From: a virus
Taxonomy: Duplodnaviria; Caudoviricetes
Virus record (IMG/VR): IMGVR_UViG_3300025372_000001
Length of the DNA: 64,000 bases
Direction: 5' to 3' (one strand)
The notes under the pieces were generated by a model. It saw only the letters and a program-made list of their open reading frames with translations. It was not told the origin of the DNA and made no database searches. Made by a program: the position numbers and the translations under genes. Position 1 is the stretch's first letter, and each line of letters opens with the position of its first letter. Positions 4,947-53,638 of this stretch are shown here, in pieces.

Positions 4947-5513
4947 ATGAATGTTATTATTCCTGATGGTTGGTATCAAGTTCCTTTAAATGAACCTGTT
5001 TATTATTATGATTTAGAATGGGAACATAATGATACCGGATGGGTGCCTGTTAAGAAATACGGTGATTTCTGTAAAAGAAACCGAAAGAAATATGTCATTC
5101 GTCAAGAGAATGTTCAAGAAGATTTGATGATGGCATTAAGGCATTTCCCTAATGCTAGTTATTCAATGGAAACTAGATATAATGACAAAGCATTTTTCAT
5201 GGCATATATTCTTTTTCTTGCAGGTGTTCAAGAAATGAACATTGATATTGGTTTTATTGGAGGACGTAGAGAAATAGCAAGTATTCTTTTTAGAGATAAT
5301 TCTTTAACAATGAAACCGTATATTGAATTACCTTCTACTAATGGAACTAATATTTTTTATTTTCTTTTACAGAAATTACATATTCCTTATAGTGGTGGAG
5401 CAAGTACTGATAAAGATTTTATGCAAGCCTCTTGGCATAACAGCGAAAGCTTTATTAGTAAACTTATCGTATATTTTAATGCTATTAAGAAAGAATTTCG
5501 TGATGGAAAATGA
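4947..5513 (+). CDS. Hypothetical protein
   Basis: 188-aa packed ORF. Confidence 0.65.
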   Translation: MNVIIPDGWYQVPLNEPVYYYDLEWEHNDTGWVPVKKYGDFCKRNRKKYVIRQENVQEDLMMALRHFPNASYSMETRYNDKAFFMAYILFLAGVQEMNIDIGFIGGRREIASILFRDNSLTMKPYIELPSTNGTNIFYFLLQKLHIPYSGGASTDKDFMQASWHNSESFISKLIVYFNAIKKEFRDGK

Positions 5514-5551
5514 TGCATTGACAATGAATAATAAATAAGGTATCATTCCTT

Positions 5552-5680
5552 ATGAAATTATTCACCATCAAAATTAAGCCACGAAAGAAGCGAGAAAGAT
5601 TTGCTCCTGTTACTAAACAAGAAACGAATCGAAAAGCCTATAATCGAAAACAGAAACATCATAAAAAAGATGAAAGCTAA
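5552..5680 (+). CDS. 42-aa basic protein with an ArfA-like KxYxRKxKH motif (below cutoff)
   Basis: MKLFTIKIKPRKKRERFAPVTKQETNRKAYNRKQKHHKKDES; ATG 5 nt after promoter TTGACA(5518)-17-TATCAT. Confidence 0.5.
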   Translation: MKLFTIKIKPRKKRERFAPVTKQETNRKAYNRKQKHHKKDES

Positions 5681-5915
5681 AATTCTCCAATACGGTTTCA
5701 CAGAAGTTAAAGAAACTGAAAACAGTTTAAAGATTTCTCATAATGGAAATATGGGAAATAGTATTAAAGATTCCGTTGATCCTAATTTGAAGCAATTGGG
5801 ATATGGTTCTATCAAGTATCTTAAGAAACTGTATCGGAAATTCAAAGAAGAAGGAAGTCCTGATTATGCTTATTCGATTGTTTTTGATAAAAATATTAGA
5901 CAAAAATTTGATTAA
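5670..5915 (+). CDS. Hypothetical protein (start reassigned to ATG 5670)
   Basis: The longer track ORF overlaps the 5552-5680 gene. Confidence 0.55.
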   Translation: MKAKILQYGFTEVKETENSLKISHNGNMGNSIKDSVDPNLKQLGYGSIKYLKKLYRKFKEEGSPDYAYSIVFDKNIRQKFD

Positions 5916-5918
5916 GTT

Positions 5919-6101
5919 ATGAAAATTCTAGGAAAATATGTCACTGCTCAAGTTTTTGGACAAAATTATCCTCTTCAAGGTTGGGTGATTCAAGAAAATC
6001 CCTTAATTATTAAACATTCGGATGGAACACAAACCAGATGTACGGGAAAACCGACAATAGTTATTAATCCTCCTAGATTACCTAATAATTTATTGAAATG
6101 A
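5919..6101 (+). CDS. Hypothetical protein
   Basis: Packed ORF. Confidence 0.55.
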   Translation: MKILGKYVTAQVFGQNYPLQGWVIQENPLIIKHSDGTQTRCTGKPTIVINPPRLPNNLLK

Positions 6102-6104
6102 ATA

Positions 6105-6269
6105 ATGATTCCTCTTCTTTTTGCAATCGAATACAAAGAAGCAGGAGTTTGGACAGAATATCAATATACCGAAAATCTACTTGACGCATGCCATATTGCG
6201 AGTAGATTGACTTGGGAAGTTCGTGAAGAATGGATACGAATCTTAACACCTGATAATAAAATTTTATGA
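6105..6269 (+). CDS. 54-aa hypothetical protein (below cutoff)
   Basis: MIPLLFAIEYKEAGVW...; fills the gap with an ATGA overlap to the next ORF. Confidence 0.5.
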   Translation: MIPLLFAIEYKEAGVWTEYQYTENLLDACHIASRLTWEVREEWIRILTPDNKIL

Positions 6270-42278: not shown

Positions 42279-43181
42279 TTATGTGTGGGCGTTTCGTTTA
42301 TAATTTTGGTAAAATTGGTATGCTCTTTTATATAGGCGTTGTTTATTTCTTTTGGTGAAATATTCTAGATTAGTATCTAAGCGTTGTTCTAATAATCCCA
42401 TAAAATCATTAAATGATTTTATGTTTGAGTTTTTTGAAAGTTCATTAAAGACTTGTAAGAGGAATGCATTTATTTCTCCGGTGTTGTTGAAATATTCTTT
42501 ATTGATTAGATATGATAATCTTTTATTATATTCTTCTTCGGCTTGTTCTTTATTCATTTCGCCGGTTTTAATTTTGTTTAGATAGAATTCTTTTAATTTA
42601 TATTTTAGGTCTTGTTGTTTTTGTCCTCTGGAATATGCTTGTTTAAGCAGATTGGTATTTTTCATGCTTGAATCATCGTGTTTATGAATGAGTTCATGGA
42701 ATAAGGCAGATTGAGTTTGTTTATTTTGGATTAGTGTAATGAATTCTTGATATTTTTCTTGAAGAGTTTGTTTAATATTTTTTAATCCGCCTAATTCTTT
42801 GATGTTTAATTTATCTCCTTTTTCCGTTCTAGAAATATAATAGTAAGTGTATTTCTTAAGGGTTGAGAATGCATTGGAAAGGGTATTGTCATAGATGTAG
42901 ATTTTTTTATATTTGGGATCATATTCTGCATGGCTATTATCTTTTTTATTAAGGAAGATGAAAGGGGGATAATTGAAGAAGGTGTTTAGTTCGGAAATGA
43001 GGTCTAATCGTTCTTCTCTGGTGGTTTTTGTAGGAGAATAGGAAAGGACTCTATTTAGAAGATTAGTAAGAGTAGTCTGGAGGGTTTCTATTTTGGTTTG
43101 AATAGCAAGAGAGATTTCTTGAACTTTTTGAGGGTCATCTTTTCGTTCGGATAAGAGGTTATATAGTTCTAGGAATTTCAT
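42279..43181 (-). CDS. Zincin-like metallopeptidase with a capsid-targeting-like N-terminus
   Basis: ALFHELIHK (HExxH) and downstream YF..TGEINAF; N-terminus MKFLELYNLLSE; TAAATA 7 nt upstream. Confidence 0.7.
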   Translation of the reverse strand: MKFLELYNLLSERKDDPQKVQEISLAIQTKIETLQTTLTNLLNRVLSYSPTKTTREERLDLISELNTFFNYPPFIFLNKKDNSHAEYDPKYKKIYIYDNTLSNAFSTLKKYTYYYISRTEKGDKLNIKELGGLKNIKQTLQEKYQEFITLIQNKQTQSALFHELIHKHDDSSMKNTNLLKQAYSRGQKQQDLKYKLKEFYLNKIKTGEMNKEQAEEEYNKRLSYLINKEYFNNTGEINAFLLQVFNELSKNSNIKSFNDFMGLLEQRLDTNLEYFTKRNKQRLYKRAYQFYQNYKRNAHT

Positions 43182-43191
43182 ATTTGAATAT

Positions 43192-45168
43192 TTAACCGTA
43201 GATTAGTTTATCAATTCTTTTGTATTTGATATTGAAGGCATTCATTAATAGTTCTACTTCTCGGAGGCATTCGTTTCTTCCTCCTCCCATAATATAGCAA
43301 TTATTATATTCTTTTAATTTCTTAATAGATAACCATTCGACAGAGATGGGATCATATTGGGGAATATTATCATCGTTTAATAATTCTTTCCATTTTTCTG
43401 ATGAGTTTCCGTCTTCGGTAATTTCTCTAGAATCAGTTATTCTATTTTGGTACATGATTCTAATTGCTTTGATGAGAGAGCTATTAGAGACTCCTTGATC
43501 CATCCATGGTCTTAGATAGCCGTAGCCTTTGTCAATAATTTCTATATCATTCCAATTTCGGGTGAAGCCGTTTTCTTCCCAGAAATATTTAATATCTTCT
43601 ATAGTGTCTTCGGTTATTCCTGTTTCTTCTGCATTAACCATTAACAAAGTTGGACCCGTTTGATTATTAACAAAATTGATAATATCTCTGAACTTTTGTT
43701 TATCTTGTTTAGATTTATAGAAATTATAATAAGTGGGTTGGACATCGACAACTATGCAAGAGGATGATTTTGATTCTTTGATATAATTGAGGTAGTGATC
43801 TTTGAAACTTTCTCCCATTTTAAATCTTTGTTCTGCTCCTAATGGTGCTTTTGGTTTAATGCCTTGGGCTTTCATTAAAGCTGCTTTCTTTTCAGGGGGA
43901 GCAAGATGTAAAGGTTTATCAATAAAATCTTGTTTAACCGGTTCTTCTTTATTGGGAACACGAATACCTAGTTCTTGTTTAAATTCTTCAAAGGAATATA
44001 TTTCGGAAACATCTGGAATTTCCCATTGATATTCATTAGGATTTAAATTATTATCATTGAACATTTTAAGAACCCATTTAAGATTGTTCTTAAGCATGCC
44101 GATAGTATTCCAAAAGCCTATTACTTTTTGTTCAGTCCATAATCTACCTTGGATTATATTAGGTAAATTTCTCAATAACATATTTCTGTTGAGATAGTTA
44201 TCCTTCAATGCTTCTTTAAATTCATCTGAAAGTGTTCCGTTTGTGTTATATGCAATGGGTTGGTTAGCTACCATATCAGATAAGACTCCTATTAATCCCC
44301 CATGATATTGATTTTCATTATCTGCAATAATATTAAAATCATGATCGACAATGAATGCTTTGGCATCTTTATCTGCATAGCTGGCTCTTTGTTCAAACCC
44401 CCATTTACCTGTATAATAAATTTCTTCTGCACTTTCTTGATAGAGGTTATTGAAATGATCTTTGAAGCTTTCTCCCATGGCATACTTTGTTTTTATATCA
44501 ATCGGAGTTTTTGGTTTAACTCCCATTCCTTTTAACACCTCTTGTTTCTTTGCAGGATCAGTTGTATGAACAATATGTTTAGTATCCACTTTACTTTTTG
44601 GCTCTTCCTCTTTCTTAATATTAAAGAATTGATGATAAGTTAAATTAACTTCTCTACTTCCTTGTAATTCAAAATTATAAGTTAAGGTTTCTGGGTTCAT
44701 ATTCACATATCCAAGAAAATCTTTAACGGTTTGTTTCGTGTGTGCATTGAAATTATTTGGCGGATTCCAAAAAGAAATAATATTACCTTTAATAGATAAT
44801 CTTCCTAAGAAAGCATGAGGAACATCATTGATGAAATCGTCACGGGTTGTTCCGTAGAGCATATCTGTCCCTTTGAGAAAGTTAACACAATCTAGCGGCA
44901 TGTAGCCTTTTTCGTGATAAAGTTTTTTAAAGGAATTTAATTTGCGTCTATATTCGGGAGATTGAACAAGGGATTCAATTGGTTTATTGAGATGTTTTGC
45001 TTTGGCAATGAGGAGAAGTTCAACATGAGTAGGAATAAAAGAAGTGTCGGAAGTAGGATCAAACCAGAATACGAAGTTGCTACAAAAGCCAAAAGTGATA
45101 GCAGATGAATCCTGGGTGTACAGGTCATCAGGATTTTCAGTTAAAAGAAAATGATCCTTGAATCTCAT
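43192..45168 (-). CDS. Tripartite polyprotein: two paralogous GRL...FWN domains plus an isochorismatase/nicotinamidase-fold domain
   Basis: FKDH motif occurs 3 times; repeated linkers; VVDVQ, DKG and GGGRNECL (Asp-Lys-Cys triad). Confidence 0.7.
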   Translation of the reverse strand: MRFKDHFLLTENPDDLYTQDSSAITFGFCSNFVFWFDPTSDTSFIPTHVELLLIAKAKHLNKPIESLVQSPEYRRKLNSFKKLYHEKGYMPLDCVNFLKGTDMLYGTTRDDFINDVPHAFLGRLSIKGNIISFWNPPNNFNAHTKQTVKDFLGYVNMNPETLTYNFELQGSREVNLTYHQFFNIKKEEEPKSKVDTKHIVHTTDPAKKQEVLKGMGVKPKTPIDIKTKYAMGESFKDHFNNLYQESAEEIYYTGKWGFEQRASYADKDAKAFIVDHDFNIIADNENQYHGGLIGVLSDMVANQPIAYNTNGTLSDEFKEALKDNYLNRNMLLRNLPNIIQGRLWTEQKVIGFWNTIGMLKNNLKWVLKMFNDNNLNPNEYQWEIPDVSEIYSFEEFKQELGIRVPNKEEPVKQDFIDKPLHLAPPEKKAALMKAQGIKPKAPLGAEQRFKMGESFKDHYLNYIKESKSSSCIVVDVQPTYYNFYKSKQDKQKFRDIINFVNNQTGPTLLMVNAEETGITEDTIEDIKYFWEENGFTRNWNDIEIIDKGYGYLRPWMDQGVSNSSLIKAIRIMYQNRITDSREITEDGNSSEKWKELLNDDNIPQYDPISVEWLSIKKLKEYNNCYIMGGGRNECLREVELLMNAFNIKYKRIDKLIYG

Positions 45169-45173
45169 AATGA

Positions 45174-45425
45174 TTAAGCAGCACTAAGAAATTCTGACCA
45201 ACCACCTTCATAATGTTTATCAACACCTCTTACGATTTCTAAAGGAGTTAATTCTTTAATATCTTCTGGATCAAGATTTCCCCATTCACAATCAGAAATC
45301 CATTCACGTCCTGCTTCAATTTGTTCAGGAGTTAATTGAGCTAAAAGATGTTGATATTTTTGTTGTGCTCTATTAGCAACTTCTGATAAAAGTCCTTCAA
45401 TATAAGTGTCAAATGCATTTGTCAT
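45174..45425 (-). CDS. Small acidic late protein (start reassigned)
   Basis: TAAATA 8 nt upstream; MTNAFDTYIEGLLSE. Confidence 0.65.
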   Translation of the reverse strand: MTNAFDTYIEGLLSEVANRAQQKYQHLLAQLTPEQIEAGREWISDCEWGNLDPEDIKELTPLEIVRGVDKHYEGGWSEFLSAA

Positions 45426-45556
45426 GATAGAACTATTTATTGCTAGGAATAACAATATTAATTGCCGAAACGGATTGAGAGGAAGCCTTAGTAATATTCT
45501 TTGCTATTTCTGCTGATTTAAAAATATCAAATAATCCACTTCCTTTCATATCAATA

Positions 45557-46087
45557 CTATTTATGTTGAACCATGAATCTATAATTATGAAATTTCTTTT
45601 CTTGACCAAATACTCTTCGCATTTCTTGTTCATTCCTAACTCTTCGATTTATCTTAGTCGAGATTTCATAAATACTAAAAGTAAATCTTTTGTTATTTTG
45701 ATTGAATAATTTGATCCAAAACTCTAATCCTTCATTAGTCATAGAAGTATCACTAATAATATATCTAAATTTGGTTAGAAGATAATCCGTATAAATGGTT
45801 CTAATTAATCCTTTATAGTTTAGATTTTGAATAATTAAATTTTCTTCGATACCTTCTTTTCTTTTATAAAAACCAACTTCAGCAGCAACAATATTTTTAT
45901 CAAGGAAATATAAATCAGTATCGCCGCTGGATACTTCCCAAACTTCAAACATAATATTATTCAATTTAACATTATCAATATGTTCCGCCACGGAACGCAC
46001 TTCTTCAGCAGTTCTATCAATGGTTAACTTGACATTATTGCTTTGAGGCATTTCTAATAAAAGTTTGGTAATTTGATCAAACTTCAT
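45557..46087 (-). CDS. GNAT-like fold protein with a capsid-targeting-like N-terminus
   Basis: KGLI..IY...L...+ISD..MT..G..FW.KL pattern; MKFDQITKLLLE. Confidence 0.5.
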   Translation of the reverse strand: MKFDQITKLLLEMPQSNNVKLTIDRTAEEVRSVAEHIDNVKLNNIMFEVWEVSSGDTDLYFLDKNIVAAEVGFYKRKEGIEENLIIQNLNYKGLIRTIYTDYLLTKFRYIISDTSMTNEGLEFWIKLFNQNNKRFTFSIYEISTKINRRVRNEQEMRRVFGQEKKFHNYRFMVQHK

Positions 46088-46096
46088 ATAAGAAAA

Positions 46097-46525
46097 TTAC
46101 TTTGTGATGCCTTGAGTGATGGCAGCGGATAATGCTTTTAGAATAGGAACAAGATTATCTACACTTGCAACCTTATTAGTTACAGCAGTATTGTAATATG
46201 CTTTGTATAGAGCAAGAGAAGCATTGACAATATTGACTGCTTCAGGTGTTTCTAATTCTTTAATTTTAGCAGATTCGATAACAGTTTGTAATGCAGCCGG
46301 ACTTAAATTTTGTCCAAGGGCAAAAGTATCAATCGCCAATGCAACATCAGTTAGATAAGGAACCATCTTAGGTTGTTTGGTGATACCTACTTTAACAGCA
46401 GGAGGAACGATTGCAGTAATTAGAGTTGGTGTTTCTGATAGAAGTAATTGTTTATCAGTAGTAGAACAACCAATGCTGGTGAATAGAACAAGGGAAAGGA
46501 AAATGGCGGTTAAGGTATTTTTCAT
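46097..46525 (-). CDS. Lipoprotein (helical)
   Basis: Signal peptide with lipobox SIG-C; TAAATA 8 nt upstream. Confidence 0.7.
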   Translation of the reverse strand: MKNTLTAIFLSLVLFTSIGCSTTDKQLLLSETPTLITAIVPPAVKVGITKQPKMVPYLTDVALAIDTFALGQNLSPAALQTVIESAKIKELETPEAVNIVNASLALYKAYYNTAVTNKVASVDNLVPILKALSAAITQGITK

Positions 46526-46536
46526 AATGAATGTAT

Positions 46537-48321
46537 TTATTGATCTTCTTTTTGATCTTCAATCATTGCCAACATGAAACGGTTTATATATCTTTGTAAA
46601 TCATCAGTTATTAATTCATAATTATTATTTGCTCTACGAAGAGAGTAAGTTAAGGTTAGTAGTTTATCAGGATCGTGATAATTAAAAGACATATCAATAT
46701 CTAGTGTTCCGTTGGCCCAAGTAGTTTTAGTTATTAAGGAATATGCATCATCTTTAAATCCTTTACCTAGAGCTAAATTAGCTATACCATTATTATGATC
46801 CAAATCTTCTAATACTTTATCTAAATTTTCCGAAAACTTTCCAGTTTCATTCCATTGCTGTTGATAAGGAACCGCCAATTTAGTGAATATTCTTACATGA
46901 ATATAATTACCCGTTCGATTATTTTGAACCACTTGTGCATGTAATTCAAATTTAGGATTAGGAATATTATATTTTGTTTTAAGAATATTATCTATTTCTT
47001 CTTGCCATGAAGTAACATGTCCTGATTTATGTTTAATATTTGCATATTCTTCTTTACCAAAGAAGTTATCAAGTAGATCATTTAAGTCTTCATCGGAATA
47101 AGTTCCACCAACTAATACAATGTTATTCATTGCATAAGTGTATTCAGGAGGGTTCTTATAAATGGATTGATGTTCTCTGGTATAATCTAAAATTTTTTGA
47201 TAAATTTCTTGCGTGATTAATCCATATTTTTGTTCATCTTGTAACATAGTAGGAACAGCAAAATCTTTACCATTAGAAAGATCAATAAATCTTCTTAATC
47301 TAATTCGACCAATGGGTTGAATCTTTCCAACATTACGATCTTTATCAAAGAAGACTTCTTTATCATTTAAGTTTTCTTGGATTCTTTTTCTATCAGAACC
47401 TTTTATTAAGTAAACGACTCCGCCGTCATTCTTGGCATCAGCAAGAGCACAATCAGAGAACGTTCCTTCATCTTTAGAATATGCACCTTGTAATCTATGA
47501 CAAGAACTAATTCCTTTATGATCAGACATTCTCAACACATCAATAGGATGCCGTGAAAATAATAAATAATAAAAAATATTATTTTGATCAATAGCTTGTT
47601 TAAAACTGTTGAATTTTTGTATCTTATTCTTTAAAGATTGTTTATCTTTATGAACCCATTCTTCGACATATTGTTCATATATAGATGCTAGAACAGGAAA
47701 GATATTACTATTGAATTCCCTCTTTTCTCGATTTATACGCTGAACTAATTTCTTTTCCATTAGTGCCTTTAAAAAATCATAAATCTCGGAAATACTTAAT
47801 GGTTTATCAGTTTTACTCTGTATATCAAAAGCGGTATTATTTAAATCATCATCATATAAATATCCTAAACTTTTAAGAGGGGATATAGTACTTATTCTAT
47901 AAGCAAATTTACTATTTTCATTAGGAATGGTAGAAATAGTTAACCCCTTATCTTTGAGAGTAGACGCTATATTATATATTTCTTTTCTCACATTATCCAT
48001 TCGTTCAAATACAGTTTTAAGTATTTTCTCTTCTTTATTTTCTATTTCATGGTGTTCATCTTTTAAAGAACGTCGAATATCTTTAATATAGGTATTGATA
48101 TTTTTTCCATCAATTGTTCTGTTCTTTATATCAATTTTATTAAGAATATCGAATGACTTTGCAGCCTTTTCAAAATTAGGATTATATACTTTAATTAGAA
48201 ATCTATCACCTTTGCCTTCAAACAATTCATTGAAAGGACGATCAGAAACTTTATCAACAGCATCTTGAATCTTATCAATATACTCTTGTCTTGCTTCAAA
48301 AAATAATTTAAATTCCCCCAT
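46537..48321 (-). CDS. 594-aa protein with an SRHPIDVLRMSD...SSCH motif and a capsid-targeting-like N-terminus
   Basis: MGEFKLFFEA; long intact ORF; catalytic-looking motif, family not assigned. Confidence 0.7.
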   Translation of the reverse strand: MGEFKLFFEARQEYIDKIQDAVDKVSDRPFNELFEGKGDRFLIKVYNPNFEKAAKSFDILNKIDIKNRTIDGKNINTYIKDIRRSLKDEHHEIENKEEKILKTVFERMDNVRKEIYNIASTLKDKGLTISTIPNENSKFAYRISTISPLKSLGYLYDDDLNNTAFDIQSKTDKPLSISEIYDFLKALMEKKLVQRINREKREFNSNIFPVLASIYEQYVEEWVHKDKQSLKNKIQKFNSFKQAIDQNNIFYYLLFSRHPIDVLRMSDHKGISSCHRLQGAYSKDEGTFSDCALADAKNDGGVVYLIKGSDRKRIQENLNDKEVFFDKDRNVGKIQPIGRIRLRRFIDLSNGKDFAVPTMLQDEQKYGLITQEIYQKILDYTREHQSIYKNPPEYTYAMNNIVLVGGTYSDEDLNDLLDNFFGKEEYANIKHKSGHVTSWQEEIDNILKTKYNIPNPKFELHAQVVQNNRTGNYIHVRIFTKLAVPYQQQWNETGKFSENLDKVLEDLDHNNGIANLALGKGFKDDAYSLITKTTWANGTLDIDMSFNYHDPDKLLTLTYSLRRANNNYELITDDLQRYINRFMLAMIEDQKEDQ

Positions 48322-48323
48322 TA

Positions 48324-48683
48324 TTATATTCCTTTCTTTAATAGTTGAATAAATGTCGGCGGAATATCTCTCTTCGATACCACTTCAAACATTCTGGGAT
48401 CATCTGTCAATGGAAAATTACTAGGTAAATTGACTTGTAACAAATCCAAAATTTCGTCTTCTTCAAATTCATCGCCCAACCAATTACCAACTGCATCATA
48501 AGCAGATTGTTTATCTCTGAATAAGAATACACTTGGTTCTTCTTCCATTTGAGAACTTCTATCTCCTTGAGAAACTAATAATCCTCCTTTTAATATACTT
48601 GGTAAATCAGTATCTTTACAAACATGATAAAAAATGTTTGATTTATTTTGTTCTTGTAATAAGAAAAATTCTTTAAATCCCAT
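48324..48683 (-). CDS. ADP-ribosyltransferase-fold protein (Tpt1/KptA/DarT-like)
   Basis: FYH....L.SIL.GGL, SVFLF....A, E.....IPP.FI; N-terminus MGFKEFFLLQE. Confidence 0.6.
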   Translation of the reverse strand: MGFKEFFLLQEQNKSNIFYHVCKDTDLPSILKGGLLVSQGDRSSQMEEEPSVFLFRDKQSAYDAVGNWLGDEFEEDEILDLLQVNLPSNFPLTDDPRMFEVVSKRDIPPTFIQLLKKGI

Positions 48684-48688
48684 AAAAT

Positions 48689-50539
48689 TTATTTACTTAA
48701 AAGGTTTTTTGTTAGGATATAATTCAAGGATTCCTCAATAACTCCCCCATCTCCATACCAATCTTCCCAAGAAGAAAGAGCAGGATTTAAACTATTCCTT
48801 TGATCTTTATAGTTAATAATACCTTCCACTGGATTATTCTGAGCAGTCTGATTCCATTCAAAGAAACAGAAATTCTCCAATCCTTTATCAATAATCGGTT
48901 GAGCCGTTAAACTTCTTAATGGATAAACATTACTATCTTGAACTTTAACCGGAAGAAAATTATAAACAGAAGAACCGTGTTCTCTATATAGAATAGTATC
49001 TCCAGCAGTAATATTATCATTTAAATTAATAATCTTTCCTAAGTTACTTCTTTTATCAAAACCACATGCGCCACATATATTAACCTTACATGAATTAGCA
49101 CAATCCACAAAGTTATTATTACATTTACATCTGGTTCCAATTAACTTCGGTAAAGGAACTGAAAAGAAATTCATTACTCTTCTTAATTCTTCGGGGAATT
49201 GTAAATCAAAATTATCAATATCAACATCAAACTTTTGAGACATATCATATAAAGAATCAATTGTACAAACATCAATATCATTATGATCATTACTAAAATT
49301 TTGAATACGATCATATACCTTTCCAAGTGAATCTCCTTCACCACCAACAGCAGAAAGATACGTTCCGAACATATCATATTCTTCTAGATCAAATTGTGAA
49401 TACTGTTTAATTAGATCATAAACATTCTTGTCTTCTCCTTTACGATAGAAGGCATTGAAGTCTTCAAATTTATAAATGTTAAAAGGAGCAGAAGAACCAG
49501 AGAGAACATAATTCATTCCATTGACATTAGCAACACCGTAGGCATTAATGGTTAATTGATAAGGATATTTCCTGGTTTTAACTATCTCTGTATTCAGATA
49601 GGGATTTTCTCCACATGCAACAGGATTGGTAATTATCTGATCGACAGGAAATGCAGAAGAAGGAAGAAGAAAGGTATTAATTGCATAAGGGTTAATTGAA
49701 ACACTGCTCGTCTGATATTGACTAGAAGTAACTCCTCCACAATTCGTATAATAATTAATATTAGTTAAATATCCTTTGGCATAATGCAGCATATTACTAC
49801 AAGGAATATTGGTATTATTGAAAGTTAAAGTATAAGGAATGGTATGATCTGCCCATTGAAGAGAATTTAGATCATTAATTCCATCAGTGGTTATATTAAT
49901 ATTATTAGGAATAATGGCAGAGACCGTATGAGTCAAAGCTGCATATGCTCTAGAATTAATTAATATATTTTCCTGATTTTGTTTAAGGGTGAAAAATAAA
50001 ACTGGTTTTCCTGGCATATCATCTTTATATGTGATAGCAGAACATGCTGTATATCCTAATACAACATTACTACTAATAATAGGAAAACAAGTTAAATCTA
50101 TTTGAGAAATTTTATTATTTAAAGAATCATAGAATCCCCATTCAGGAGTCATTTGGTTCCAGAAAGAATTATCAACTGTTGGTTGGGAAAGACTTCCACT
50201 AGAATAGAGAAAGACGGTTGCAAGAGGATTGGTGGAAGTTACATTAAGAGTTAATGTTTGGGGGCAACTAGTGTAAGCGGATAAAACGTTATAAGAAACG
50301 TGAATGGAATTTAAAAGATAGTTGCTAGGATATGCAGTAAGGGAAAAGGACGAGACTGAGGCACAATCAGAAACAAATACTTTATAAATGTTAGCAGCGG
50401 TGTAATAGTGGGATAAAGTGGTTGAATCTGTGACAATACCATCTCCCCAATTAATAGTATAATTGATAGAAGGATCAGATGTAGATAAACTGAATGGTTG
50501 GGTTATCGTATAACCTGATAAAGGAGAAATATTAATCAC
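48689..50539 (-). CDS. Baseplate/tail structural protein with an N-terminal PKD-like domain
   Basis: YTINWGDG (PKD); C-terminal D+D.CTID.LY.M...F wedge-like region; GTG start 5 nt after TAAATA. Confidence 0.6.
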   Translation of the reverse strand: MINISPLSGYTITQPFSLSTSDPSINYTINWGDGIVTDSTTLSHYYTAANIYKVFVSDCASVSSFSLTAYPSNYLLNSIHVSYNVLSAYTSCPQTLTLNVTSTNPLATVFLYSSGSLSQPTVDNSFWNQMTPEWGFYDSLNNKISQIDLTCFPIISSNVVLGYTACSAITYKDDMPGKPVLFFTLKQNQENILINSRAYAALTHTVSAIIPNNINITTDGINDLNSLQWADHTIPYTLTFNNTNIPCSNMLHYAKGYLTNINYYTNCGGVTSSQYQTSSVSINPYAINTFLLPSSAFPVDQIITNPVACGENPYLNTEIVKTRKYPYQLTINAYGVANVNGMNYVLSGSSAPFNIYKFEDFNAFYRKGEDKNVYDLIKQYSQFDLEEYDMFGTYLSAVGGEGDSLGKVYDRIQNFSNDHNDIDVCTIDSLYDMSQKFDVDIDNFDLQFPEELRRVMNFFSVPLPKLIGTRCKCNNNFVDCANSCKVNICGACGFDKRSNLGKIINLNDNITAGDTILYREHGSSVYNFLPVKVQDSNVYPLRSLTAQPIIDKGLENFCFFEWNQTAQNNPVEGIINYKDQRNSLNPALSSWEDWYGDGGVIEESLNYILTKNLLSK

Positions 50540-50839
50540 CTAAATATTTATCGCCTTCAATACTTCGTTAAAGGCTTTATACATTGTACTAATATCAGGA
50601 TAAAGTAAGATTGTATCCATATGACTATTAATATAATCCCGATATTCTTTAATAGCACCTTTTAATAATGCTCGTAAATCTTCCACTTCTTCTGGAGCAA
50701 TTTCACTTTGTCCTGCCTTCTTCATTTTCTTATAAAGATTTAAAATCTTTTTATGATAATCTTTAAGAGTATTACTTAATTCCATTTCTGAGGCAACAAA
50801 AGATTCGTGTAGCATATTAACGTATTCATTAAAATTCAT
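50540..50839 (-). CDS. Small helical late protein
   Basis: MNFNEYVNMLHE; TAAATA 5 nt upstream. Confidence 0.65.
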   Translation of the reverse strand: MNFNEYVNMLHESFVASEMELSNTLKDYHKKILNLYKKMKKAGQSEIAPEEVEDLRALLKGAIKEYRDYINSHMDTILLYPDISTMYKAFNEVLKAINI

Positions 50840-50850
50840 TTAAGTATTTA

Positions 50851-51312
50851 TTAAAAAGTAAAATCTCCAGTATTATTGAAACTAGTGTTAATGACTACTT
50901 GTTTATTATTTAAGTTAGGCATAAGGATGATGATTGCTATTTGGTAAAGGAAATTATCATAATCGGGGGCGACGAGAATCTTTTGAACGGTGATACGAGG
51001 TTCATATAGTTTAATGACTTTATCAATAGCATTACCGATAGCAGTTGCTCCCATATCAGATAAGGGTTGACCAATAAAGGCTTTTAAATTTACACCAAAA
51101 GAAGGGGTTAAGTATCTTTTTTGTGTTAAAAGATTTTCTAGAGAATTTAATATTGCTCGTTCGTCTACATCTGCAATAAGATCATTACCAACTACAACAT
51201 CATTATTTCTACGATTGTTAGAAACTTGTTTCAGGGCAAAATCGAGATTAATATCAGAAAACGTGTAAGTGTTTTGATTTACCTTATTTGTCAAGTTGTT
51301 AATAACAATCAT
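50851..51312 (-). CDS. gp25: Baseplate wedge protein, T4 gp25-like (start reassigned to ATG 51312)
   Basis: FSDINLDF, DERAI.NSL.NL, P.FG.NL, YEPRI motifs. Confidence 0.88.
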   Translation of the reverse strand: MIVINNLTNKVNQNTYTFSDINLDFALKQVSNNRRNNDVVVGNDLIADVDERAILNSLENLLTQKRYLTPSFGVNLKAFIGQPLSDMGATAIGNAIDKVIKLYEPRITVQKILVAPDYDNFLYQIAIIILMPNLNNKQVVINTSFNNTGDFTF

Positions 51313-51345
51313 ACAATTATTTATGATCACTGGTAAATAATGAAT

Positions 51346-51846
51346 ATGTCAAAATTTTTAAAACTGTATGAAAGTGTAATGGATGAAGTTAATCTTGCAC
51401 GTATTCGTCCCCAAACCATTGTAGTTATTGATCCTGAAGCACTTGAACAAGAAGTTATTGCTAATGATATTATCAAACGTAAAGGTTTAACTTATTTGTC
51501 ACAATTAAAGAAAATGGCAACAGAGAAGTATCCTTTGTATGTTTCTGCATTAAAGGCAGTTAGACCTGCTAGTAATGTTTATGCTGCTCTTCCTACCAGT
51601 AATGATTTTCAAGAAGCAGACTTAGTTGATTGGTCCCCTGGTTTACAGAAAAGTTGGAATGCTCCTATGACCGTTCCTCTTTCCATTCTTAAACCTATTG
51701 TTTCTCCAGAAAACATTATGCAAATTCCTATTCCTGGTAGAGAAGCAAGTTATGAACGTTCCGAAGGCGATAACTCTCTCAACAAAGGCGAACAACATCC
51801 AAATGTCGTTGGTCAAAAAGAGAAACGTGCCAAGGAAAAGAAATAA
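51346..51846 (+). CDS. Late hypothetical protein (MSKFLKLYE)
   Basis: TAAATA(51334) 6 nt upstream of the second ATG. Confidence 0.65.
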   Translation: MSKFLKLYESVMDEVNLARIRPQTIVVIDPEALEQEVIANDIIKRKGLTYLSQLKKMATEKYPLYVSALKAVRPASNVYAALPTSNDFQEADLVDWSPGLQKSWNAPMTVPLSILKPIVSPENIMQIPIPGREASYERSEGDNSLNKGEQHPNVVGQKEKRAKEKK

Positions 51847-51877: not shown

Positions 51878-53638
51878 ATGAATGACACCTTTCCAGTTCC
51901 TTCTGATGCTTATTTAGCATTTGATGGTCTTACTATTAGAGATAAAATCCGCCAACGTTTAACTCAAACAGGCGTATTCACTGATCAAAACTTTGAAGGA
52001 AGTAACCTCTCTGCCATCAATGATGTCATTGCAATGGTCTTTTCCCTATTGATCTATAATCTCAACAAAACTAGCTCAAACGGAAACTTCTCAGAAACGA
52101 CCCTCTATAAATCAATGAACGGGATAGTAAAATCTCTTAGTTATAATCCTATTGGTAGTCAAACTGCCTCAGTTAATTTTACATTATCTGCCCAAGGACT
52201 TCCTGCTGGATTTTATACTATTCCTCGTTATTCTTCCATTGCTGTTGCAGGCATCAATTATTCCTTAAATGATGATTTAACCTTTAGTAAATTGGTTGAT
52301 ACTACCTTAGAACAGATTATAGATTTGGCTAATTCAAAGATTATGTATCAAGGAACATTTATGGAATATCCAACAGTTCTTTCTGCTGGTATTCCTAATG
52401 AAACAATTTTCCTTGTAACCGATACTTCTATTCTAGTTGATCATTTTAACCTTTTCGTTTATGTTAAAGAACCTAATGGTATCTGGACTAAATGGAATAG
52501 AACTGCTTCTTTATTTCTTAATAGTGCAACTGATAAAGTCTTTGAAGTTAGATATAATGAGAATAAAAGATATGAAATAAAATTAGGTAATAATATTAAC
52601 GGTTATCAACCTTCTACTAATAGTCAGATTGCTATCTATTATTTGGCATCAGATGGACCTAATGGAGAAATAGGGAAAAATACTATTACCTATAAGAAGA
52701 TGTCTATTCTAGATACTAGTAGATTGGCAGAGATATTAACAGATGAGCAAGTGGGAAATATATTAGGTAACTCTGATGTATCTAGTAGTTTATTATTTGA
52801 TAATGCTTCTCCTAGTACATATTATAGTGAACCGGAGACAGTTGCACAGATTAGGGCAAATGCTCCTGCTAATTATAGATCACAATTTAGTTTAACTACT
52901 GAAACTTCTTATCAGACTTTTCTCAAAACCAATTTCGCTAATATTTTACATGATGTTCATGTGATGAACAATGTTGATTATCTTGATAGTTATATTCAAT
53001 ATTTTTATAATTTAGGTTTAACCAATCCTCAATTGGAATATAGAGCATTATATAACCAAATCAACTATTCCGACTCATGTAATTTCAATAACATCTATTG
53101 TTTTTGTGTTCCAAAGACCAGAAGCAATACAAGGTCTTACGTTTTTCCTGCTCAAAAATCATTAATTATTAATACGATTCAACGAGAAAAAGTGATGACG
53201 GCAGAAGTGATTATTGCTGATCCGGTTTATATGGCAATTGATTTTGCTGCATCTGCTACAGGCGAACCAACAGTTAAAGATATTTCTAATACTAATATTA
53301 TCATTTATAAAGACCCGATTACTAGAAAAAGTGATGCAACTATTGCAAGTAATGTAAATGATTTAATTGTTTCTTTCTTTGACAGAATTAATAATACGTT
53401 AGGACAGAAGATTAATATTAATCAATTAGTTACTGATATATTGGCATTGGATGGTGTTCAAAAAATTGCAACACAAATTAATGACGTAGGAACAACTATA
53501 GAAGGATTACAATTAATGATGTGGAATCCATTGTATCCCTCTTTTGTAACTAAGTTTGGGGCAAATATTACCTTAGAGAATTTTCAATTTCCTTTTTTAT
53601 ATAGTTCTTCCTTACTTTCTAGAATAACAGTTATCTAA
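51878..53638 (+). CDS. gp6: Baseplate wedge subunit, T4 gp6-like
   Basis: FDGL.IR..I..RL.....FTDQNFEGSNLS, K.LSYNP, RYEIKLG.NING, ET...IR.NAP..Y. Confidence 0.88.
   Translation: MNDTFPVPSDAYLAFDGLTIRDKIRQRLTQTGVFTDQNFEGSNLSAINDVIAMVFSLLIYNLNKTSSNGNFSETTLYKSMNGIVKSLSYNPIGSQTASVNFTLSAQGLPAGFYTIPRYSSIAVAGINYSLNDDLTFSKLVDTTLEQIIDLANSKIMYQGTFMEYPTVLSAGIPNETIFLVTDTSILVDHFNLFVYVKEPNGIWTKWNRTASLFLNSATDKVFEVRYNENKRYEIKLGNNINGYQPSTNSQIAIYYLASDGPNGEIGKNTITYKKMSILDTSRLAEILTDEQVGNILGNSDVSSSLLFDNASPSTYYSEPETVAQIRANAPANYRSQFSLTTETSYQTFLKTNFANILHDVHVMNNVDYLDSYIQYFYNLGLTNPQLEYRALYNQINYSDSCNFNNIYCFCVPKTRSNTRSYVFPAQKSLIINTIQREKVMTAEVIIADPVYMAIDFAASATGEPTVKDISNTNIIIYKDPITRKSDATIASNVNDLIVSFFDRINNTLGQKININQLVTDILALDGVQKIATQINDVGTTIEGLQLMMWNPLYPSFVTKFGANITLENFQFPFLYSSSLLSRITVI

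Follow-up and report, generated by a model that had tools for sequence, protein, structure and literature searches.

Why should a single phage gene carry the same short peptide three times? The question is raised by an open reading frame (ORF) of 658 amino acids (aa; protein P0001) on the minus strand at 43192-45168, stop codon 43192-43194, of a 64,000-nucleotide (nt) stretch of viral DNA, IMG/VR record IMGVR_UViG_3300025372_000001; we call the whole of this stretch the window. The peptide, built around FKDH, heads each of three units, and an earlier interpretation made from the letters of the DNA (the sequence-only reading) held that several head-packaged proteins are fused here and released at Glu residues by the prohead protease. 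Having followed up this proposal computationally, we favour, with somewhat better than even confidence, the view that the ORF encodes a polyprotein of three internal head proteins, packaged in the capsid and probably injected, which would be cut apart by the prohead protease.

The architecture that suggested this idea is real, with FKDH at residues 3, 235 and 455. The first copy lies in the N-terminal peptide MRFKDHFLLTE (aa 1-11, 45136-45168), which ends L-T-E. Behind it, all on the minus strand, come unit 1 (aa 12-233, 44470-45135), an A-type module with a GRLS..ISFWN core and a basic tail ending K-Y-A-M-G-E; a second, internal peptide (SFKDHFNNLYQE, aa 234-245, 44434-44469), ending Y-Q-E; unit 2 (aa 246-453, 43810-44433), another A-type module; a third peptide (SFKDHYLNYIKE, aa 454-465, 43774-43809), ending I-K-E; and unit 3 (aa 466-658, 43195-43773), a putative cysteine hydrolase of the isochorismatase fold. 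The GRL..FWN motif of the A-modules starts at residues 122 and 341, and the motifs VVDVQ, DKG and NEC of unit 3 at residues 473, 546 and 632. The ORF holds two basic tails of 38 aa, the first of which (aa 196-233, 44470-44583, H..DPAKK..LKGMGVKPK...) has an isoelectric point (pI) of 9.7. At the DNA level, the repeat reported near 43796 and 44456 is a 23-nt block, ATGGGAGAAAGYTTCAAAGATCA, with exactly two copies in the window, both on the minus strand: one at 44456-44478, coding M-G-E-S-F-K-D-H, and one at 43796-43818. The copies are identical at 22 of 23 positions, the flanking DNA only about half identical, and 100 shuffles gave no match even when three mismatches were allowed.

In phage T4, the capsid-targeting sequence (CTS) is MKTYQEFIAE; ten residues, those that begin IPIII, are enough for a protein to be taken into the prohead. 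There gp21, the protease, cuts after L/I-x-Glu, and Asp at the cut position blocks processing (PMC8442874, PMC9026906). The FKDH peptides follow this pattern in their residues, and MRFKDHFLLTE fits a targeting peptide of about ten residues that ends in L/I-x-Glu. It is not alone in doing so. By a pattern that was written post hoc, 5 of the 11 ORFs at 42279-51846 start in this way, and two more carry looser versions, against none of the 99 other ORFs of the window. Three viral contigs and one metagenome contig share the cluster, leaders included, in synteny. Across relatives the leader is conserved as protein and not as DNA (MRFKDHF, MTFKQYF, MNFIEFL). A full HMMER scan over 1.84 billion representatives returned 597 cluster representatives that match the 658-aa ORF, and the comparisons of architecture and junction residues drew on 150 of these; among roughly 100 homologues of unit 3, most start M-K/R-x-x-E/D-F/L-L/I-x-E, for example MKTYKEYLTE, MRAKEFITE or MKAYEFLTE.

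The residues at the internal junctions fit cleavage. Without exception, the 22 internal A-module junctions identified, in 13 divergent proteins, have Gly-Glu as their last residues and run on into a CTS-like peptide that itself ends in Glu, whereas five natural C-termini of A-like modules have Gly-Asp there. This contrast between Glu inside a chain and Asp at its end fits a protease site with Glu at P1 and not a purely structural motif. Internal copies of unit 3 carry hydrophobic-x-Glu six residues before strand 1 in about 24 of 31 cases, as N-terminal copies do. Another lineage has a second, independent junction motif, (Q)GVAE(G), which occurs in 7 copies between the modules of the 924-aa protein P0024 and flanks unit 3 at either end in six proteins; proteins of this lineage still start with a classical CTS (MRAKEFITE). 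Its arrays (P0024, encoded at 10001-12775 of contig L012, together with P0022, P0025 and P0029-P0031) include two GNAT domains and unit 3. The gene after P0024 encodes a LysM+SLT lysozyme, and the contig looks like that of a large phage.

The units are also met apart: a search for unfused homologues found free-standing forms of each module. As a protein of its own, of about 190-215 aa, unit 3 is found in at least 75 cluster representatives; a further 31 have it internally, where its fusion partners include GNAT domains, DUF6934 and DUF5661. A-modules occur singly (P0132, P0143, P0152) or in arrays of two to at least seven modules, up to 1758 aa long. Two further genes of the window, at 42279-43181 and 46537-48321, are downstream modules of fusion proteins in relatives (P0008, P0144, P0063). 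The family combines a conserved short motif of cleavage type at module boundaries with the same modules as separate genes.

The codons of the CTS also appear, from the breakpoints between relatives, to form the seam along which cassettes of cargo are swapped, lost or joined in frame. Contig L001 is about 87-92% identical to the window across the cluster, but homology stops at 44453, the end of the junction-1 repeat, and is not picked up again until the last 11 codons of the ORF; after unit 1 come 2.45 kb of different modules (P0002, 1061 aa). At the end of that ORF, the junction-2 CTS is joined to the last codons of unit 3 through about 12 nt of microhomology, and unit 3 is therefore deleted there. 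Protein P0154 shares junction 2 (83% identical) and continues with a GNAT domain. In L001, different sequence takes the place of the neighbouring gene 42279-43181 from its CTS codons to its 3' end, and a contig of sequencing run X4, which joins 43191 to 42285, lacks the gene altogether. The target is about 35% identical to its counterpart in a collinear contig, G001, with a different module content, while the structural genes are 62-83% identical. What these comparisons show is a hypervariable cassette locus in which only the leader is conserved and the breakpoints fall at CTS codons. PMC2839356, citing Repoila 1994, describes similar shuffling: in T4-type hyperplastic regions and in the ip loci of T-even phages, close relatives exchange cassettes at short conserved sequences on either side of variable genes, and the present locus matches this. 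Here one seam lies inside coding sequence, in the CTS codons, and exchanges can therefore give in-frame fusions.

A prohead protease of the right kind is encoded by a relative. In the AT-rich window (30-41% GC) lie genes for a T4-type portal (Portal_T4, E 4e-81), for baseplate wedge proteins and for a gp25-like protein. Identity between this portal and those of cultured T4-like phages is only 26-28%, tblastn and megablast found no match to the ORF across 50,697 phage records, and the sequencing runs that contain the stretch are all freshwater or pond metagenomes; we conclude that the source is a freshwater T4-like phage, uncultured and deeply divergent. Contig G001, collinear with the window (portal 83% identical in amino acids, wedge 71%, other structural proteins 55-67%), encodes, 11.4 kb past the portal, a Peptidase_S77 protein of the gp21 type (E 4.9e-20, above the cut-off). 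The equivalent position falls about 10 kb beyond the end of the window, and the records of L001 and L002 stop too soon to include such a gene.

Collectively, the likeness to the CTS, the separate and reordered modules, the uniform Gly-Glu junctions and the relative's gp21-type protease support the proposal of fused, head-packaged proteins released at Glu, and from them we infer that the three units would be packaged, cleaved and injected. In the scheme we envisage, the 658-aa chain would be made late in infection and docked to the scaffolding core of the prohead by its N-terminal CTS. A gp21-type S77 protease would then cut after Glu11, after Glu233 and/or Glu245, and after Glu453 and/or Glu465, with predicted products of aa 12-233 (25.6 kDa), aa 246-453 (about 24 kDa) and aa 466-658 (22.7 kDa), and these would be ejected with the phage DNA. 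Fusion of cargo would cost nothing in such a scheme, because the protease would separate the parts again.

Several observations weigh against this polyprotein. At the Gly-Glu site, P3 is M, N, Q or R, outside the L/I-x-E rule of T4, and the CTS of unit 2 ends Y-Q-E, not L/I-x-E. The Gly-Asp termini represent only about three independent lineages, roughly counted. The protease gene is known from G001 and not from this phage, the window ending too early. An 8-residue position-specific scoring matrix, derived from the CTSs with which free-standing homologues of unit 3 begin, placed the N-terminus of the ORF 4th and the junction-2 CTS (aa 454-465) 9th of 15,252 positions, but it is too short to be specific: it missed the junction-1 CTS (aa 234-245) and picked unrelated helices. 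Three proteins (P0002, P0132, P0152) stop 10-14 residues after the Glu and so end in a CTS-like stub, a feature reminiscent of T4 Alt, which has a propeptide at its C-terminus; in structure, the peptide could be part of the upstream module. AlphaFold2 (AF2) models the tail and the FKDH peptide that follows it as helices, with moderate confidence (predicted local distance difference test, pLDDT, 74-84). Helices and stubs alike would suit an uncleaved internal protein of three domains, packaged through its N-terminal CTS, in which the internal FKDH peptides are recombination scars or extra scaffold-binding helices that raise packaging efficiency; breakpoints at CTS codons alone would explain how the peptides became internal. 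We consider this unlikely. Scars should decay, but the peptides, with their terminal Glu, and the Gly-Glu persist even where the modules of an array are only 22-35% identical; a purely structural element would not be expected to have Glu inside the chain and Asp at its end; and the other lineage has a different short boundary motif, again containing Glu, repeated seven times in P0024.

The peptide might also have nothing to do with the capsid, being a secretion, assembly or degradation tag, or a translation signal at the mRNA level for very short leaders, in which case the ORF would be an ordinary multidomain late protein, possibly linked to the baseplate. The cluster does adjoin baseplate wedge genes, its genes have ATAAATA close to the ATG and little Shine-Dalgarno sequence, and the 23-nt block is more conserved at the DNA level than its flanks. 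Against this stand the conservation of the peptide as protein and not as DNA, its close match to the experimentally defined CTS of T4, and its in-frame presence inside ORFs, where an initiation signal makes no sense, and we think such a role improbable. Least credible of all, in our judgement, is that the three units are made separately as nested genes, by internal initiation at Met231 and Met451. An in-frame ATG does lie in the conserved 23-nt block at both junctions, and a neighbouring gene starts MGEFK.., but neither internal ATG is preceded by a promoter-like ATAAATA motif or by a Shine-Dalgarno sequence, the Met is replaced by N, Q or R at many junctions of relatives, and it belongs to a tail motif, R-Y-x-M, that ends a free-standing module as well.

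Within the chain, units 1 and 2 are full-length paralogues, because subtype profiles built from relatives of each align over 217 columns (hhalign, probability 100%, E 6.3e-43); BLASTP matches their C-terminal 125 residues at E 2e-14. The paralogy claimed in the sequence-only reading is thus borne out, and the near-repeated linker that it described is equally real, although it turns out to be the conserved C-terminal tail of the module itself. This tail, H-x-L-P-P-E-K-K...K-P-K...R-Y-x-M-G-E, is basic (pI about 9.8), and the His, Lys, Gly and Pro in it do not vary among 15-30 homologues. We considered the Met of MGE as a relic start codon and rejected the idea: it is part of the motif R-Y-x-M-G-E, which also ends the free-standing protein P0143. 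The GRL..FWN domain, left without an assignment at the outset, remains so after structure prediction. An AF2 model of unit 2 made from 30 module instances is confident (pLDDT 87, above 90 in the core), and VIA-align across the PDB found no relative (best Z 4.3), BFVD gave no match, and the ESM Atlas, searched by shape and by features, gave no relative and template-modelling (TM) scores below 0.45. A single-sequence word search with unit 2 likewise found nothing. The domain may be a new fold.

Profile searches were equally silent for the protein as a whole: neither it nor its single units gave anything usable against Pfam, PHROGs and NCBIfam, and phmmer and profile searches against PDB sequences gave chance matches only. 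For unit 3, structure was more informative. Its AF2 model, built from 75 free-standing homologues, has a pLDDT of 93. Foldseek against the PDB returned nothing at E ≤ 1e-3, but in an exhaustive VIA-align comparison the top 28 chains were all isochorismatase-like (Z 9.1-11.3, root-mean-square deviation about 3 Å over 119-134 residues), among them N-carbamoylsarcosine amidase, PncA, a 'cysteine hydrolase', RutB and YcaC; the next fold, that of CARF domains, scored Z 8.3. Six residues are invariant among the 75 homologues: Asp475, Gln477, Lys547, Gly628, Cys634 and Glu637. Three of them are candidates for the catalytic triad and lie in the model at the expected points of the secondary structure: Asp475 (VVDVQ; codon 43744-43746, minus strand) after strand 1, where it aligns with Asp10 in the VDLQ motif of PncA; Lys547 (DKG; 43528-43530, minus strand) after a central strand; and Cys634 (NEC; 43267-43269, minus strand) at a strand-to-helix turn, at the N-terminus of the helix.

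Of the isochorismatase/nicotinamidase triad that had been read from VVDVQ, DKG and NEC, the fold and the invariant Asp, Lys and Cys stand, while the nicotinamidase label is not supported. PncA structures have a conserved Asp/His/His metal-binding site. No His is invariant or nearly so among the 75 homologues of unit 3, and a metal site of the nicotinamidase type is accordingly not supported. Nor does sequence place unit 3 in a named family: neither the whole protein nor the unit alone has a Pfam match at E ≤ 1 (PF00857 included), and a unit 3 profile found no isochorismatase-family member among PDB sequences or in NCBIfam. With hhalign, the profile aligned to E. coli PncA, YcaC and RutB over only 16 columns around VD.Q (E 0.012, probability 3.5%), which we rejected as evidence of sequence homology. 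Unit 3 differs from these relatives in structure as well, in a helical insert of about 65 residues between Lys and Cys, and it is phage-encoded and headed by a CTS. We infer that it is a cysteine amidohydrolase-like enzyme whose substrate would be an amide or ester bond of some small molecule. Contigs from two other freshwater runs, X3 and X4, match the window rightward of 43652 (about aa 505) and continue leftward into a divergent unit 3 allele that reads ...LMFVNAEDQ; mosaicism therefore extends inside the hydrolase gene. Over 44416-45019, run X3 has a gap made up of low-depth, fragmentary contigs.

The neighbourhood of the ORF includes other CTS-headed genes. On the minus strand these are 42279-43181 (MKFLELYNLLSE), a 300-aa protein with HELIH that is the last module of P0008 in a relative; 45557-46087 (MKFDQITKLLLE, 176 aa); 46537-48321 (MGEFKLFFEARQE, 594 aa), fused behind an A-module in P0144 and P0063; 48324-48683 (MGFKEFFLLQE, 119 aa); and 50540-50839 (MNFNEYVNMLHE, 99 aa). 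A gene with a CTS-like start, 51340-51846 (MNMSKFLKLYE, 168 aa), lies on the plus strand. The cluster is adjoined by the gp25-like gene at 50851-51330 and a wedge gene at 51878-53638. A shape search of the Atlas with the HExxH protein of 42279-43181 found only weak similarity (TM about 0.3) to SprT-like and ArdC/IrrE-type metallopeptidases. Between two of the CTS-headed genes, at 46097-46525 on the minus strand, lies the gene for a 142-aa protein without a CTS but with a lipoprotein-type signal, a hydrophobic stretch followed by Cys; it keeps its place in the clusters of L001, L002, L003 and L010. Relatives also hold genes that the window lacks. A CTS-headed NUDIX-domain protein of about 327-330 aa (MTFDQLYSLIVE...) is found in L010 (7175-8164) and L002 (2335-3318) and is absent from the window, and L001 has an extra CTS-headed gene at 5459-6166 (235 aa, MGFKEFYQLYYE), between its homologues of 48689-50539 and 48324-48683, the borders of the insertion overlapping the CTS codons of the next gene.

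Directly upstream of the target, the ORF listed at 45174-45455 (minus strand) probably has the wrong start, a TTG: its homologue in L001 (9421-9672) starts MTQSFDAYIEGLLSE, which corresponds to an internal ATG (MTNAFDTYIEGLLSE). Read from there, it encodes a protein of about 83 aa and lies 5 nt from the start of the target. When 17 gene starts between 46525 and 63219 were examined, about 9-10 lacked a clear Shine-Dalgarno sequence and had (A/G)ATAAATA 5-10 nt ahead of the start codon; examples lie before 46525, 50839, 51878, 53663, 58203, 60971 and 63219. We take the motif to resemble the T4 late promoter, TATAAATA; so close to the start codon, it would give mRNA leaders that are very short or absent.

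How far is this system already known? CTS-headed internal proteins, Glu-specific prohead proteases and hypervariable ip loci are established. The T4 proteins IPI, IPII, IPIII and Alt bear a CTS, are processed by gp21 and are injected with the DNA, and this cargo is believed to act inside the host as soon as it has been injected (PMC9026906, PMC8442874, PMC3012670, PMC12373910). The present locus is like theirs in an N-terminal peptide of about 10 aa with the same pattern, ending in hydrophobic-x-Glu, and in hypervariable cassette loci with only the leader conserved; a gp21-type S77 protease is encoded by the collinear relative G001. Beyond the leader, we saw no similarity of the ORF to any T4 internal protein. 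In T4 each cargo protein is a separate small gene, cut once, whereas here at least seven modules can be chained in one ORF, with CTS-like peptides at the internal junctions; and the T4 internal proteins are small basic inhibitors, whereas these modules are folded domains of about 200 aa, some with enzyme folds. Giant phages offer a second comparison. Many proteins of their heads are cleaved behind a Glu within short motifs, frequently in several places, and the N-termini of paralogues are conserved (PMC9026906, PMC5694885). The inner-body and ejection proteins of phiKZ, 201phi2-1 and SPN3US, whose proteases are of the gp175 type, resemble the present proteins in forming paralogous families, but their propeptides are long (more than 100 aa) and discarded, unlike the short CTS-like peptides found here. 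In the literature we searched, giant phages included, we found no account of cargo domains chained together with repeated targeting peptides between them, and neither the unit 3 hydrolase family nor the A-module was described.

A broader possibility, to which we give a little less than even weight, is that a large clade of uncultured freshwater T4-like phages uses the CTS as a universal connector that serves at once to load the head, to mark the protease cut and, in DNA, to provide a seam for homologous or microhomology exchange. If this is so, then cargo cassettes could be fused, split, swapped or deleted without loss of function, and the Glu-inside, Asp-at-the-end rule would be the signature of the system. 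The result would be plug-and-play polyproteins of injected effectors, up to 1758 aa long, with GNAT, NUDIX-neighbouring, HExxH, cysteine-hydrolase and new-fold modules. Two uncharacterised families have already come out of the analysis, an isochorismatase-fold hydrolase that is invisible to Pfam and a confidently modelled domain without structural relatives. If cargo is chained in protease-separable polyproteins, then CTS-like peptides inside long ORFs would serve as a finder of cargo modules in metagenomes that needs nothing but sequence, and the arrangement offers a natural model for a single construct that would load several foreign proteins into T4-type capsids. Proteins that phages inject are at work ahead of all phage gene expression, and those of T4 disarm the defences of the host; very few have been characterised. 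For the phages themselves, a polyprotein of this kind would explain the fast evolution of such an arsenal, because fusion and fission would be neutral.

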